A stretch of 64,000 nucleotides of DNA from Escherichia coli 042 (GTDB taxonomy: Bacteria > Pseudomonadota > Gammaproteobacteria > Enterobacterales > Enterobacteriaceae): assembly GCF_000027125.1 (NCBI RefSeq), contig NC_017626.1, one strand, 5' to 3'. Both the position numbers and the translations under genes were made by a program. This document shows, piece by piece, positions 2,213-54,009 of this stretch (its first letter is position 1; each line of letters starts with the position of its first letter). The notes under the pieces are model-generated. The model made no database searches. It saw only the letters and a list, made by a program, of their open reading frames with translations, and was not told where the DNA came from.

Positions 2213-3454
2213 TTAATCCTTAGCCTGCAACAGCGCGATAGTACGATTCATTTCGTTGAAGACAATATCGAGGCCTTCGTCAAAGCCCATCCCTGGTTTT
2301 ACCAGCATACGCATAGGGCGAGCGGCAAGGGCGACGTGGACACAGGTGCGGGCACTGACATCAGTTTCATTGCAGGTGCCGCCCTGGTACGCTTCCATGC
2401 TGTGGCTATTGCAGTAAAGAACCGCATCGACGATGTTGTGAATACTGCCCAGATCCGGGGTTTTGATTTGCACCATGTGGCAACTGGCGGCATCAGTGAA
2501 ATCAACAATATCCTGGTAGGTGTTACACCATTCATCGGCCACAATTTTCACGCCGGAACCGAGGCGCGTCAGCTCTTTGGTAATCGCGGTCAGCAGGCGA
2601 ATTTGATCGGGCTTGTTACCGGCATCGACCGGCCCTTCAATGTAGAGCGGCAGGCCTTGCGCTTCTTTTTCCAGGCTGGCGATGTATTGCGCACAGCGAA
2701 GCGGATCCATATCGAAGATCAGACCGATAGTGCCGTATACATCGATGTGCAGGGTTGGGTGGTAGCGTGCGCTGGTGCGCTTGCTCAGAATGCGATCCGA
2801 CAACCAGCGGACATATTCGCGCAGTTTTTCACCTTTAAAGCCCAGCTTATCTTCGACGTTATTAATCAGCGCATGGGGCAGCACGTCGATGCCTTTAAGG
2901 ATCATCTTATCGACGGCGATATATCGATCGTCGCCGCTCTGACCAAATAATGGAATGGATTCCGCCACGCGTGGCAACTGCCATTCATCACAGACCACTT
3001 CAGTTTTCAGACGGCCGGTTGCCAGCGCGGTAGCATCAAGCAGCGCCTGTGATAATCCGTAGCGCACGGCGGTATGCAGCAAGTTGCCGTCAATACGCAA
3101 TTTGTCGAAGAAACGGGCATTCGGCAGGAAAGCATCCACATCGCGGCCTACCAGTAATGGCTTGATATGGTCGTTGAGGAACGGAATAAAGTGCTCTGCG
3201 AGGAACAGTGGATCGCGACCACCTGCCCCGGAATACTGTACGGCAGCACAGTCACCTACAGCGACCGCGCCGTTTTCCAGAATCAACTGTACCGATACGC
3301 ACTCCCCGGCCTGACGTACGGCGTTAAACCCCTGTGTTACTGGCTCCCCGGTATAAAAAAAGCCGTCGTGACCCGCTCCGTTTTTTATCGCCTGCTGGTC
3401 ATCGAAATAGAATGAGGAATAGCCAGCGGTGAACAGGGCCTGTTTTATTTTCAT
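2213..3454 (-). CDS. 3-methylaspartate ammonia-lyase
   Basis: 413-aa ORF, typical length and enolase-superfamily features of methylaspartate ammonia-lyase; start overlaps stop of the upstream glutamate mutase E gene. Confidence 0.8.
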   Translation of the reverse strand: MKIKQALFTAGYSSFYFDDQQAIKNGAGHDGFFYTGEPVTQGFNAVRQAGECVSVQLILENGAVAVGDCAAVQYSGAGGRDPLFLAEHFIPFLNDHIKPLLVGRDVDAFLPNARFFDKLRIDGNLLHTAVRYGLSQALLDATALATGRLKTEVVCDEWQLPRVAESIPLFGQSGDDRYIAVDKMILKGIDVLPHALINNVEDKLGFKGEKLREYVRWLSDRILSKRTSARYHPTLHIDVYGTIGLIFDMDPLRCAQYIASLEKEAQGLPLYIEGPVDAGNKPDQIRLLTAITKELTRLGSGVKIVADEWCNTYQDIVDFTDAASCHMVQIKTPDLGSIHNIVDAVLYCNSHSMEAYQGGTCNETDVSARTCVHVALAARPMRMLVKPGMGFDEGLDIVFNEMNRTIALLQAKD

Positions 3455-4899
3455 TATGGTCTTCCTATTAATTTACTGTGGGATACAGCATTGATGTCAT
3501 CTACAACCATCTGGAATGTCGGTTGGCGTCCTTCAAAACGTGCGCGTTCCGCAACGTAATCGTGGTGGAGGTCGAGAATATCTTTTGGCAATGGAACGGC
3601 TCCGGCTTCCAGTACGCGTATCGCGCCGGTGTTATCACGGACAGGAAGAATTTTGCCCGCGTTACACGCGGCTGGTGCAAACGGCACATCCAGTACGCCC
3701 GCTTCAAATGCCAGCACCGTACCGCGCGCAATATCACCATTACCCAGTTCGAACACTTTATTGAGTACCGCGCGAACCTCGCTCTTAATCAGTTCAATTT
3801 CCAGTTCAACCGCAGGGCACGGCGGGAATTTCTGCTCATTGACCATGTTGAGCATCTGGCGGGAGGCTTTCAGCCCCTGAATGTTGGCAGCGGCAGTCGG
3901 GATTCCCCAGGCTTCGTGCGGGCTTTTGGTGATGACTTTGGTGGCACCAGACATCCCCGCGACGGCTGCGCCCCAGGAGATAATAGCGAACGCTTTCGAT
4001 TCGTCTTCCGGAAAGCCGCCCATCCACTGGTGAAACACGGTACTCAATTCATAGTCGGTATAGCCATAGCTCTGAAAATATTCGTGTGCAAGTTCACGCA
4101 GAGACTGGATCGCCGCAACATCCTGCGTCAGGCTGCCGACCTGTCCATAACCAACGGTGATAGATTTCACACCCTGTTCCAGCGCCAGCAAGCCTTCGAT
4201 TATCGCGATAGAGTGCGAGATAAACGGCGGGATCAGCGTACCCGTTAGTGGGCCAAACGGTTCGCGGTTGATGCGGATCCCGTGTTCTTCATACATCCCC
4301 ATTAAACGGTCGCAGTACTGCCAGTCGCGGATCGATTTTTCCAGCGTTACGCGCTTGGCATACGGAATATTGTAGGAAATGCCGCCGCCTTCATAACTGG
4401 TAAAGCCGCTGGCCATCGAGATTTCAGCCAGCAGACGCGCATCTGGCGTGCCGTGGCGGATCTGTAGCGGTTTTTGCAAAGTTTCGGTGAGGCGACGGCA
4501 AGCTGCGACGCCGTGGTTAACGACCGGTAAACCGTTCAGTTTAGAGGTTCCGGCTTCGATGGATTTTTTAATCCCTACAGCCGCTTCTTCGTACCGATTC
4601 AGACGGGTATATGCATCGATAGTGCTCGGCAGCAGATCGCACTCTTCTTGTAGTGTTTTCAGTAGTTCGATGTGTTCGTCCATCAGCGCCACACCTGCGC
4701 GCGGTTGGCTAAGGGTTTTACCTTCCTTGTCTGCTTTCAACAGCACAAGAGAGAAGCGTTTATGCTCAGGAATGGTTTGTTGGTATTTAACGCCATCTTC
4801 AAAGTTTTCAACATCCTTGCCGGTTTCCCAGGTTTTCAGTACCTGTTGCCGCTCGGTCATGAATTCGTCATGGGTTAATTTCTTATTTCGAAGTTCCAT
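3454..4899 (-). CDS. Glutamate mutase epsilon (E) subunit (methylaspartate mutase)
   Basis: 481-aa ORF, length and sequence character of GlmE/MutE; sits between the L and lyase genes as in clostridial mesaconate-pathway operons. Confidence 0.8.
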   Translation of the reverse strand: MELRNKKLTHDEFMTERQQVLKTWETGKDVENFEDGVKYQQTIPEHKRFSLVLLKADKEGKTLSQPRAGVALMDEHIELLKTLQEECDLLPSTIDAYTRLNRYEEAAVGIKKSIEAGTSKLNGLPVVNHGVAACRRLTETLQKPLQIRHGTPDARLLAEISMASGFTSYEGGGISYNIPYAKRVTLEKSIRDWQYCDRLMGMYEEHGIRINREPFGPLTGTLIPPFISHSIAIIEGLLALEQGVKSITVGYGQVGSLTQDVAAIQSLRELAHEYFQSYGYTDYELSTVFHQWMGGFPEDESKAFAIISWGAAVAGMSGATKVITKSPHEAWGIPTAAANIQGLKASRQMLNMVNEQKFPPCPAVELEIELIKSEVRAVLNKVFELGNGDIARGTVLAFEAGVLDVPFAPAACNAGKILPVRDNTGAIRVLEAGAVPLPKDILDLHHDYVAERARFEGRQPTFQMVVDDINAVSHSKLIGRP

Positions 4900-49803: not shown

Positions 49804-50692
49804 CCTCCAGTTTCGCTTTGCATTCTATGTAAATGGCTTGTACGTTCTGCTGCAATTTCATTCCAGATGTCAGGCGATATGCTTCTGCAAAATATCGCTT
49901 CAAATCATCCATGTTTTCTGCCTGAGCCATTTCATCGCAAAGAAGTTGTACTTTATCCATTATTTCCTGCTGGCGTTTCCGTTCATCTTCGCGGATATCT
50001 TCCTCTGATTTGTGCGGCATAACTGGTTCAGTCCACACACCTTCTTCTTCGTTTAGTACGTGAATAGCACTATCAAGACGTGATGCCTTAGGCCAATACT
50101 TGCTTGCACGCTTTACGACCGTCTTTCGCGCCATCTCATTCCAGTGATTTACCCATGGTCCTTTATCGCTGAATGCTGCCTTGCTTGTTTTCCTTACAGC
50201 CTCAATTTCAGCCAGACTCATCTCTTCCGTTAGATAATCACCTGCTGGCGTCTTAACTGTGCAGTAAACGCCAACGATATCACCACGATCACCGAAGGCG
50301 TTGTATTTATGGGTTGGTGCTTTATCAAGCCCGTTTGACTCATAGGTATCGTTAGCATGAACAAGTTTTGCCTGACCCCATGAGATAACACCAGACTCCA
50401 TTGCAATATGGAGCAATCCCATATAACTGATATCAAGGCAAACCATGCCGTCGCGCGGAACTAGATAAGCAAGTTTGCTGGCCGGGTTTAAGGTGATGCC
50501 GATCGCCGCAACATTGATGATGGCGTTCTGTGCGCTGGTTGGATTTGCCAGTGCCGTTTTAGCCAGGTAATCATTTTTCTGGAAATACTGAATTGCAAAC
50601 TGGCTTTCCTTAGCCCATGTCACCGTCTGTTCAGTCAATGCTCCGCAGAATAACTGCTCCTGCTGTTTAACGAATTCAACGATATTGCTCAT
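49781..50692 (-). CDS. recT: RecT-family single-strand annealing protein
   Basis: 303-aa ORF with RecT/Bet-like core; occupies the bet position of the early-left operon. Confidence 0.75.
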   Translation of the reverse strand: MSNIVEFVKQQEQLFCGALTEQTVTWAKESQFAIQYFQKNDYLAKTALANPTSAQNAIINVAAIGITLNPASKLAYLVPRDGMVCLDISYMGLLHIAMESGVISWGQAKLVHANDTYESNGLDKAPTHKYNAFGDRGDIVGVYCTVKTPAGDYLTEEMSLAEIEAVRKTSKAAFSDKGPWVNHWNEMARKTVVKRASKYWPKASRLDSAIHVLNEEEGVWTEPVMPHKSEEDIREDERKRQQEIMDKVQLLCDEMAQAENMDDLKRYFAEAYRLTSGMKLQQNVQAIYIECKAKLEVASEQTI

Positions 50693-51000
50693 GCAGCTTC
50701 TCCATAAATATGTCTGCGTTTGAATATTGCGAAGGCATATTCAGCCTTAACTCTTTCGGTTATTGCATCCCAGAACCATTCAGCGGCTTTTTCCTGATAG
50801 TTACAGTCATCATCTTCCAGCCAGTCGATAGCGTCCTTAGTGTGTTCATCTGGTTTATATGAGCGAAGCATTTCGCTTATTGGGTCGCAACGTTTGCAGA
50901 GGCGATCAACTTCACTGTTGATTCGTTCGTAATCTTCATCAGTAAAACTTGCGATTATTTGCGATATTTCACGCTTATCATTCAGAGTCAGAATCATCAT
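50689..51000 (-). CDS. Hypothetical acidic protein in gam position
   Basis: 103-aa ORF whose stop overlaps the recT start (ATGA); Asp/Glu-rich. Confidence 0.5.
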   Translation of the reverse strand: MMILTLNDKREISQIIASFTDEDYERINSEVDRLCKRCDPISEMLRSYKPDEHTKDAIDWLEDDDCNYQEKAAEWFWDAITERVKAEYAFAIFKRRHIYGEAA

Positions 51001-51081
51001 CTTTCTCCTGTTCTTTGTGCTGATTGAGCATTTCTTTCATCTGACGAATGAATTCTTCGTCTGACCAGTTATCTGTAAAAC

Positions 51082-51234
51082 TCATTTCCTGCGATACCAC
51101 GGAAGGTTGATCGCTGATTTCATCGCTTTATTTGCTTCAAGCCACATTTTTGAATCACCAATAAATCTGGCTATTACTGCTTTGTTCTGTGCAGCACGAA
51201 GCATCTGGTGATTGATGGCTATTTCATTGCGCAT
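51082..51234 (-). CDS. Kil-like small protein (tentative)
   Basis: 50-codon ORF MRNEIAINHQMLRAAQNKAVIARFIGDSKMWLEANKAMKSAINLPWYRRK found by reading, directly after the cIII-like ORF; assignment by position and loose motif only. Confidence 0.35.
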   Translation of the reverse strand: MRNEIAINHQMLRAAQNKAVIARFIGDSKMWLEANKAMKSAINLPWYRRK

Positions 51235-51353
51235 AACGCCTCCAGTTGTTTCTTTGCTGCTCTGATTAATTGTTTAACTCGGCGTGATAATTCAGATTCG
51301 TGCGGGTAGAAAGCGGACATGACGCCGCTACCCGCGAGCTGAAAGTGCATCAT
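51219..51353 (-). CDS. cIII: cIII-like protein
   Basis: Internal start MHFQLAGSGVMSAFYPHESELSRRVKQLIRAAKKQLEAL resembles the lambdoid cIII core; start codon uncertain. Confidence 0.5.
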   Translation of the reverse strand: MMHFQLAGSGVMSAFYPHESELSRRVKQLIRAAKKQLEALCAMK

Positions 51354-51547
51354 GGGTAACTCCTTATATTTGATTGCATAACGAAAACGCCTCGAATGAA
51401 GCGTTATTGGTATGCATATAAAAAGGCCCTCACACTGGAGGGCAAAGAAGATTTCCAATAATCAGAACAAGTCGGCTCCTGTTTAGTTACGAGCGACATT
51501 GCTCCGTGTATTCACTCGTTGGAATGAATACACAGTGCTTATTCGTA

Positions 51548-52018
51548 CTAATAAAATACCCAATTTTCTGTTTCTTGGTTGTGTCCAAAGTTATATTCAA
51601 TATCTGGTGTTGATGTATCAATATTCTTCATCCCATCAACAAGAGTTGATACAACAGCCAAATCTTGTTCTATTCTCATTAAATGGTATTTCTTCCGGCG
51701 CAATAAACTTTCAATAGCAAGTTTCTTCGTTGGGAATGCAAAAGATCTTTCTGCATTTTTTGCTACTTTCTTAATTGCATATCTATTTCTCCTTTGTTTC
51801 CATTCCTGTAACCACTGATTTGGTGCTGGTTTAAAATTAACAATCCAATGCGCAGGAACCAACCATGCATAATGCTCTGTCTGATGAAAAGCTATATATT
51901 GAAGTGCGAATATTTTTATCCCATCTTCTTCAACTGTCGCCTGGAATCTCCAGAAAACAGGCATTCCATCATGTTCAGTTTCTGATTCAGGAAAAGGTAC
52001 GCTCCATGATTTTGTCAT
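51548..52018 (-). CDS. Hypothetical protein immediately downstream of N
   Basis: 156-aa ORF with GAGGTGA RBS, starting 9 bp after the N stop; no recognisable family. Confidence 0.55.
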   Translation of the reverse strand: MTKSWSVPFPESETEHDGMPVFWRFQATVEEDGIKIFALQYIAFHQTEHYAWLVPAHWIVNFKPAPNQWLQEWKQRRNRYAIKKVAKNAERSFAFPTKKLAIESLLRRKKYHLMRIEQDLAVVSTLVDGMKNIDTSTPDIEYNFGHNQETENWVFY

Positions 52019-52026
52019 ATCTCACC

Positions 52027-52353
52027 TCAAATAAGTGGTTTGCTGCCTAATTTCATTTTCTGTCGACCAACACAAGTCACACCAATTTCACTGCGTGGCT
52101 TGCTGTACCATGTGCGCTGATTCTTGCGCTCAATACGTTGCAGGTTGCTTTCAATCTGTTCGTGGTATTCAGCCAGCACCGTAAGGTCTATCGGATTCAG
52201 TGCGCTTTCTACTCGTGATTTCGGTTTGCGATTCAGCGAGAGAATAGGGCGGTTAACTGGCTTTGCGCTTACCCCAACCAACAGGGGATTTGCTGCTTTC
52301 CATTGAGCCTGTTTCTCTGCGCGACGTTCGCGGCGGCGTGTTTGTGCATCCAT
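52027..52353 (-). CDS. N: Antitermination protein N (lambda-type)
   Basis: MDAQTRRRERRAEKQAQWKAANPLLVGVSAKPVNRPILSLNRKPKSRVESALNPIDLTVLAEYH matches lambda N (Arg-rich boxB-binding motif at N-terminus); the track ORF extends upstream of the true start. Confidence 0.9.
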   Translation of the reverse strand: MDAQTRRRERRAEKQAQWKAANPLLVGVSAKPVNRPILSLNRKPKSRVESALNPIDLTVLAEYHEQIESNLQRIERKNQRTWYSKPRSEIGVTCVGRQKMKLGSKPLI

Positions 52354-52463: not shown

Positions 52464-52494
52464 GCCCTTCTTCAGGGCTTAATTTTTAAGAGCG
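52464..52494 (-). promoter_or_regulatory. nutL (boxA cgctctta + boxB gccctgaagaagggc)
   Basis: Minus strand reads cgctcttaaaaattaagccctgaagaagggcagc, identical to lambda nutL. Confidence 0.9.
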
Positions 52495-52538: not shown

Positions 52539-52606
52539 ACAAGGAAGATTGTATGTTGTAAACAAGAAATATTGTAAAAAAGAGCGTGAAAAACAAATTC
52601 CATTGT
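52539..52606. promoter_or_regulatory. OL operators (phage 434 type), overlapping pL
   Basis: Three 14-bp sites of the ACAA-N6-TTGT type: acaaggaagattgt (52539-52552), acaagaaatattgt (52562-52575), acaaattccattgt (52593-52606). Confidence 0.8.

Positions 52607-52656: not shown

Positions 52657-54009
<1,353 letters not shown>

Follow-up and report, generated by a model that had tools for sequence, protein, structure and literature searches.

The described systems that come closest to the gene considered here are the anti-restriction and exclusion genes of lambdoid and related phages. Lambda Ral (PF11058, phrog_14587) is a small (66-82 amino acids; aa), non-essential cargo gene of the pL operon that lies between N and cIII, is variably present in near-identical lambdoid phages and, being located downstream of the first terminator, depends on N for its expression. 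SieB and RexAB, from the early-left and immunity region, owe their expression in the lysogen to promoters of their own or to pRM and are in some cases membrane proteins; Ocr (T7 gp0.3) and ArdA are strongly acidic DNA mimics. Here, we describe an open reading frame (ORF) of 156 aa that occupies positions 51548-52018 (minus strand, ATG start, stop codon included) of a 64,000-nucleotide (nt) stretch of Escherichia coli 042 (contig NC_017626.1), which we refer to as the window and in whose positions all coordinates below are given. The ORF is the gene named gp45 in phage HK97 and ST933Wp19 in phage 933W (PHROG 1636). The gene shows no relationship to Ral, Ea10 or SieB, or to any known family of anti-defence proteins, and fills what appears to be a distinct, immediate-early slot of the operon.

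The ORF resembles Ral in being small, non-essential cargo carried in the pL operon between N and cIII, but the two show no sequence relationship, that is, the 156-aa protein matches neither PF11058 nor phrog_14587, and the ORF is located upstream, not downstream, of the first terminator. Any likeness to Ocr and ArdA would be one of timing only (the first transcript made after infection), since the protein is basic (isoelectric point, pI, of 8.0, with a +13 patch described below) where those proteins present an acidic surface, and its structural model shows no match to either fold; on these grounds a DNA-mimic mechanism is excluded. SieB and RexAB share with the ORF the same general neighbourhood. 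However, a consensus scan found no promoter from which the ORF could be expressed independently in the lysogen, and the protein shows no sign of membrane association; because it is soluble and lacks a transmembrane segment, it is not a membrane exclusion protein.

Several lines of evidence confirm that the ORF is a genuine gene under purifying selection and not a chance reading frame. The protein matches phrog_1636 over its entire length (residues 1-156 of 156; E 1e-111), the comparison with HK97, 933W and Huey reveals 3-4 synonymous vs. 1-2 non-synonymous differences (dN/dS about 0.1), and the comparison with a 63%-identical homologue yields a proportion of differing non-synonymous sites (pN) of 0.21 vs. 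saturated synonymous sites (pS 0.78). Full-length homologues with 54-84% identity are found across the Enterobacterales, and the predicted fold (below) is of high confidence. Membership in the HK97 gp45 family is evident both from sequence (the full-length phrog_1636 match and 98.7-99.4% identity to members) and from synteny (the gene directly follows N and is itself followed by twin terminators and then cIII). Specifically, the amino-acid identity is 98.7% to HK97 gp45 and 99.4% to the post-N ORF of 933W (ST933Wp19, NP_049479.1), H-19B, BP-4795, phi24B and Min27, with the same 99.4% match in dozens of phages that convert their hosts to Shiga toxin (Stx1/Stx2) production; an ORF of the BASEL temperate phages Huey and Dewey also matches at 99.4%. 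Every one of these close matches is annotated as 'hypothetical'. Overall, the gp45-type gene was found in 83 phage records and, based on a 651-nt probe that covers the gene and a coverage threshold of at least 80%, in 562 of the 5426 complete E. coli genomes (~10%). The sequence itself has been publicly available since the genomes of 933W and HK97 were determined and is thus not new.

The junction with N is tight, and the first-pass annotation of the window, which had reported a 156-aa ORF right after N, 9 bp away and with a good ribosome-binding site, was accurate in these respects. On the minus strand, 8 nt intervene between the N stop codon (TGA, 52029-52027) and the ATG of the ORF at 52018 (i.e., the ATG begins 9 nt past the last base of the stop), and the sequence, read directly, has a strong Shine-Dalgarno (SD) motif, GAGGTGA, over the N stop codon (52022-52028, reading 52028-52022); the junction as a whole reads TGAGGTGAGATATG. 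With so short a gap and the SD lying over the stop codon, the ORF would be translated in coupling with N. The preceding gene encodes a 107-aa N antiterminator (52027-52350, minus strand, beginning MDAQTRRRERRAEKQ; phrog_271, 'anti-termination protein N-like', E 6e-25). This N is chimeric, being of lambda/434 type to about position 52097, and its last ~18 codons (52027-52080) fall in a block that HK97, 933W and Huey have as well. The same gene with the same downstream terminators follows, in HK97 and 933W, an N of the H-19B type instead of the lambda-type N found here, and the 8-nt gap is replaced by a 58-nt 'intergenic' spacer (3443-3500 of retrieved locus L001) that is an out-of-frame remnant of a lambda-type N C-terminus (VTCVGRQKMKLGSKPLI*) with the SD kept. 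The persistence of the N-tail and SD remnant in these two phages despite their H-19B-type N indicates that the N tail, the SD and the ORF were inherited as a unit.

Downstream of the ORF, a hairpin scan identified two intrinsic-terminator-like structures on the minus strand, the first, GCCCTCcagtgtGAGGGC followed by a T-run, at 51416-51443 (hairpin 51443-51426; the equivalent of tL1) and the second, AACGCTTCATTCGAGGCGTT, at 51386-51405. This twin pair lies 3' of the ORF, and it accounts for all terminator-like hairpins found on the minus strand between pL and cIII. HK97 has both hairpins after gp45, the first of them annotated as a putative terminator, and none between N and gp45. Since the ORF is located upstream of the first terminator, it is probably made together with N without antitermination, which would place it in the immediate-early, N-independent pL transcript that ends at the first terminator and would make ral and ea10, by comparison, delayed-early genes. 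Consensus scanning between pL and the ORF revealed no promoter-like site on the minus strand from which the ORF might be transcribed on its own. The 45-aa cIII (51219-51356, minus strand; phrog_550, E 3e-13) is the first delayed-early gene after the terminators.

The 200-nt spacer 3' of the ORF (about 51380-51560) folds better than shuffled controls (z = -6.3) and includes, right after the ORF stop codon, a perfect 14-bp hairpin (51504-51535, minus strand) recovered by RNA folding; no known RNA family was matched when this region was scanned with Rfam. The spacer occurs in 2253 E. coli records vs. 567 that carry the ORF, i.e., about fourfold more, which argues that it is a junction element shared by different cargos. 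As the first-pass annotation had maintained, the 156-aa ORF is the single supported ORF between N and cIII according to the ORF listing; the other reading frames are either antisense and internal to it (plus-strand ORFs of 61-79 aa) or lie over the terminator hairpins. The latter is the case for a 31-aa minus-strand ORF (51404-51499) that was probably called spuriously; Huey has a 32-aa ORF in the matching region (1483-1581 of retrieved locus L016), where it is annotated as a hypothetical CDS.

Comparisons of gene content across related phages, using the breakpoints of BLAST alignments between the window and HK97, 933W and HK446 as borders, show that what had been regarded as one cargo hotspot between N and cIII is in fact two slots, with the first terminator hairpin between them. 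Colinearity with the window extends over positions 51032-52080 in HK97 and over 51416-52080 in 933W, with an ea10-like gene (phrog_646; ea10/ssb-like) inserted in the latter at 51415/51416. HK446 shares 51032-51415, then carries ral (phrog_14587), and then shares 51420-51538; beyond this point an opposite-strand phrog_1244 ORF replaces the 156-aa ORF, and homology resumes at 52097, inside N. Thus, slot A, which spans from the 3' end of N to the hairpin spacer (51538-52097), holds the 156-aa ORF here and the phrog_1244 ORF in HK446, and slot B, between the two hairpins (51415/51420), is empty here and in HK97 and holds ral in HK446 and ea10 in 933W. Huey, likewise, has other cargo in the N-cIII interval between near-identical flanks. 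The earlier view of this interval as a lambdoid cargo hotspot is therefore supported by the mosaic cargo of HK446, 933W and Huey, but the ORF does not occupy the slot used by ral and ea10. HK446 and Sf6 possess the same recombination module and carry other cargo in place of the ORF, so the ORF is not part of that functional module; that the ORF is a conserved, phage-specific and dispensable cargo gene of lambdoid early-left operons is firmly established.

We then turned to the protein. Its closest PHROG match aside, it also matches PHROGs 18686, 37429 and 13631, and a profile search carried out exhaustively over 1.84 billion cluster representatives returned 89 hits, about 70 of which are full-length proteins of 130-160 aa sharing 20-27% identity with it. 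The homology of these distant relatives is backed by reciprocal tblastn. They are distributed over PHROGs 1636, 13631, 25384 and 28215, each annotated as of unknown function, and the source records supply no names for the distant members. The 75-sequence family alignment built from this search has the conserved core ...YR..eG..v........ET.....K...K....RFAF.TK..A...L..RK..Q..HL......FD. and Pfam matched neither the query nor any of the 75 members. Apparent domain fusions among the relatives, considered as possible clues to function, were rejected: P0066 and P0080 are repeat/low-complexity artefacts and P0051 has an N-terminal extension only, leaving no genuine fusion. Searches of NCBIfam, PADLOC and the PDB (by sequence and profile) with the ORF protein were also without a hit, in line with the first-pass annotation, which had recognised no motif in it. 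PADLOC-DB v2 returned only a chance-level match to Cas1_II (E 0.017), and nothing for 10 distant relatives.

AlphaFold modelling with the 75-sequence alignment gave a model with a predicted local distance difference test (pLDDT) score of 95.7 and a predicted template modelling (pTM) score of 0.83; an earlier model from a shallow alignment of 20 sequences (pLDDT 58) was discarded. The protein is predicted to be a compact, soluble, single alpha/beta domain, in which three long strands (residues 19-30, 33-46 and 50-55) form a beta-sheet, accompanied by two short helices, a fourth strand (83-86), a 33-residue helix (98-130) and an ordered C-terminal tail. Consistent with solubility, the grand average of hydropathy (GRAVY) is -0.58, and the maximum of 0.56 over 19-residue Kyte-Doolittle windows indicates no transmembrane segment. 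The family is basic (median pI 8.9, net charge +4), and in the ORF protein residues 73-115 carry a net charge of +13. The protein has, on its surface, a conserved segment rich in Lys and Arg; Lys or Arg is conserved across the superfamily at ten positions (24, 75, 76, 83, 84, 87, 92, 98, 108 and 109), and the sole widely conserved acidic residue, E46 (87%), is Gln in the clade of the ORF. The alignment contains no conserved catalytic residues and no Cys or His cluster; together with the Gln at position 46, this makes an enzymatic role unlikely, and the protein is probably non-enzymatic. From its charge, binding of a polyanion (nucleic acid) would be the simplest reading.

The structure search of the model returned no match to known anti-defence or DNA-binding folds. 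The best matches, all weak, were to Tudor/KOW-like small beta-barrels (PipX, the C-terminal domain of UvrD/PcrA, and the KOW domain of NusG/Spt5), adaptors with which the model has in common a bent N-terminal beta-sheet followed by a helix. That the fold of the ORF protein has no characterised relative is firmly established. In sum, the remote-homology and structure searches that the first-pass annotation had proposed did uncover a distant family, one of unknown function, but yielded no informative fold match; they also produced no homology to a housekeeping phage function, and the proposal of an anti-defence or defence role by position stands in this respect.

The gene contexts of the relatives, as sampled from the encoding contigs and from annotated phage records, were always early or DNA-metabolism operons, with no constant partner gene among them. 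Homologues of 62-63% identity are found in Salmonella phage NX263 and E. coli phage TanjaMuster_Bas81 as the first gene of a small operon that continues with ParB-like, MarR-like and RusA-like genes. In both phages, these six genes (the gp45 homologue, the ParB-like gene, small ORFs, and the MarR-like and RusA-like genes) are embedded in opposite orientation in a block of virion genes, and the six-gene operon has the appearance of a module that was acquired. TanjaMuster shows a T1-like gene layout, and in neither of these two T1-like phages is an integrase or a repressor annotated. Among more distant relatives, one follows RecT, YqaJ and CsrA, one adjoins RecE, one lies between SSB and a Dam-type methylase, and one is located just upstream of xis-int. 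One more distant relative, from a marine prophage (retrieved locus L020, 3922-4209 and 4988-5908), shares its early-left operon, which lies directly upstream of the integrase gene, with genes for an Acb2/Tad1-hairpin protein and an orphan C5 DNA methylase. The Acb2/Tad1-hairpin is an anti-CBASS/anti-Thoeris sponge fold. Its Pfam profile was matched neither by the query nor by the 75 family members, that is, the sponge is only a neighbour of this one relative. Two further signatures were considered and rejected. Sharing of the gene with plasmid leading regions, as is the case for many anti-defence genes, is not seen, given that only 11 of 72,556 plasmid records carry the gene and none of these is mobilizable; and rapid divergence at the syntenic site of NX263 vs. 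TanjaMuster, as expected from an arms race, is not seen either, the two homologues being 97% identical.

Taken together, the best explanation we can offer, and a tentative one, is that the ORF encodes a non-enzymatic, polyanion-binding, immediate-early accessory factor of counter-defence or host takeover. Under this hypothesis, the ORF would be translated with N from the immediate-early pL transcript, ahead of N-dependent antitermination, and would be silent in the lysogen; the protein would act stoichiometrically on a polyanionic target, either a nucleic acid itself or a nucleic-acid-handling protein of the host; and it would do so in the first minutes of lytic growth or induction, conditioning the host or shielding the phage genome from a host barrier. 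In favour of this hypothesis are the cargo behaviour of the gene, a timing that could not be earlier, the absence of any fixed partner and the neighbours of the relatives. Of the two roles that had originally been proposed from position, defence is unlikely (the gene is in the pL operon without a promoter of its own, and a T1-like phage has a copy), whereas anti-defence is plausible and unproven, and continues to be argued from position.

Several observations weigh against the counter-defence or host-takeover hypothesis. There is no match to a known anti-defence protein in sequence, charge or fold, and the binding of a polyanion is read from charge alone. Conservation is high (62% between lambdoid and T1-like phages and 99% among Stx phages) and the gene is not fast-evolving, which is atypical for genes engaged in an arms race, and the gene is absent from mobilizable plasmids. 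The neighbours of the relatives are just as compatible with a role in the DNA metabolism of the phage itself. As far as the sequence tells, Rho-dependent termination may occur between N and the ORF, but the tight coupling would work against this. The searchable literature contains no relevant report on the function or phenotype of the gene (as gp45, ST933Wp19 or PHROG 1636), and neither the ORF protein nor its motif-bearing relatives were included in the screen of 200 phage accessory genes by Silas et al. (bioRxiv 10.1101/2023.04.06.535777). That study describes orf184, a widely distributed gene from the same accessory region as ral that triggers gop-beta-cII (bioRxiv 10.1101/2023.04.06.535777); identity of the ORF with orf184 was considered and rejected, as orf184 begins MEALVVERSEDGYW and is a different protein.

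Alternatively, the protein might be a small DNA-binding helper for the phage's own recombination, replication, partition or early transcription that is not aimed at host immunity, for instance, a cofactor or regulator that works alongside RecT, Erf, RecE, SSB, a ParB-like protein or RusA. We regard this as doubtful, yet as a best guess it nearly matches counter-defence or host takeover. The basic character of the protein and its conserved Lys/Arg patch are what such a helper would be expected to show, as is the placement of relatives beside RecT/YqaJ, RecE, SSB with a Dam methylase, xis-int, or ParB-like and RusA-like genes; the high sequence conservation, unlike that of an arms race, and the presence of the gene in temperate and T1-like phages alike point in the same direction. 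However, a dedicated helper would be difficult to reconcile with the absence of a fixed partner across contexts, with the variety of recombination systems to which the gene is linked (Erf/Abc2 in HK97, Exo/Bet/Gam in 933W, and RecT with a Mu-Gam-like gene in the window), and with HK446 and Sf6, which have the same recombination module and yet do without the ORF. Further, the model bears no likeness to a known DNA-binding fold.

Much less probable, in our view, is that the protein modulates elongation or antitermination together with N, the Nus factors or RNA polymerase. The tight coupling of the ORF to N and the weak Tudor/KOW-like structural matches prompted this possibility, and it is consistent with the translational coupling and with an N-tail/SD/ORF junction that is retained in one piece, which HK97 and 933W keep even as a remnant; but relatives occur at varied operon positions in phages that have no N gene nearby, and the ORF itself is paired with two types of N, lambda-like in the window and H-19B-like in HK97 and 933W. 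Least probable of all is a defence or superinfection-exclusion gene of the SieB/Rex type, expressed in the lysogen to block other phages, for although the gene is very common in E. coli prophages and the N-cIII interval of lambda and P22 is the textbook location of sieB, the ORF is on the pL strand, 8 nt behind N, with no promoter-like site, and would thus be repressed by cI in the lysogen, PADLOC had no hit for it or for 10 relatives, it lacks the transmembrane segments of SieB and RexB, and a 62%-identical homologue resides in a T1-like phage without an annotated integrase or repressor.

The surrounding early region of the prophage reads as a clear mosaic of 434-type immunity and an HK97-like early-left arm. 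The cI (53058-53690) and the oL/pL region share 97.5% DNA identity with phage 434, and three 434-type operators of the form ACAA-N6-TTGT (52539-52552, 52562-52575 and 52593-52606) mark the oL/pL region, from which N and the ORF are driven. Upstream of N, the sequence and a hairpin scan reveal a nutL boxB hairpin, GCCCTGAAGAAGGGC (52464-52478, minus strand), of the lambda type. The early-left arm is HK97-like in kil, cIII and gp45, and RecT and a Mu-Gam-like gene replace Exo/Bet/Gam. kil (phrog_2055) is located at 51082-51234 on the minus strand and is followed, before RecT, by a conserved early-left gene of 103 aa (50689-51000, minus strand; phrog_3486, E 2e-59) whose function is unknown. At the position of rex, between cI and pL, the prophage carries a moron (52657-53061, minus strand) encoding a protein of ~134 aa (phrog_2651, of unknown function) with a signal-peptide-like N-terminus; the longest ORF call for it, of 158 aa, overlaps the 3' end of cI, and the annotation of its Huey homologue as 'PagP' is doubtful.

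In conclusion, the gene is present in HK97, H-19B, 933W and most sequenced Stx1/Stx2 phages, and yet no function has been assigned to it and no structure of a relative has been solved. Together with N, it would encode the only two proteins that a phage of this type appears able to make from pL without antitermination, and the two slots would represent a principled sorting of lambdoid accessory genes by timing, with immediate-early genes before the terminator and N-dependent genes after it. As a counter-defence or host-takeover factor, the protein would have a bearing on the range of E. coli strains that Stx phages can infect and convert, and as a DNA-transaction helper it would fill a gap in the picture of early lambdoid biology. 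The gene is small and dispensable, and its function is thus directly testable. The broader proposition that the gp45 superfamily constitutes a hitherto undescribed class of immediate-early proteins for counter-defence or host takeover, which have a fold not seen before, are made along with N ahead of any antitermination and overcome a host barrier by binding nucleic acid or a defence protein handling nucleic acid and not by DNA mimicry, strikes us as rather unlikely at present. If true, however, such a class would affect the host range and the induction success of Stx phages, because the gene is carried by most Stx-converting phages and by ~10% of the complete E. coli genomes.
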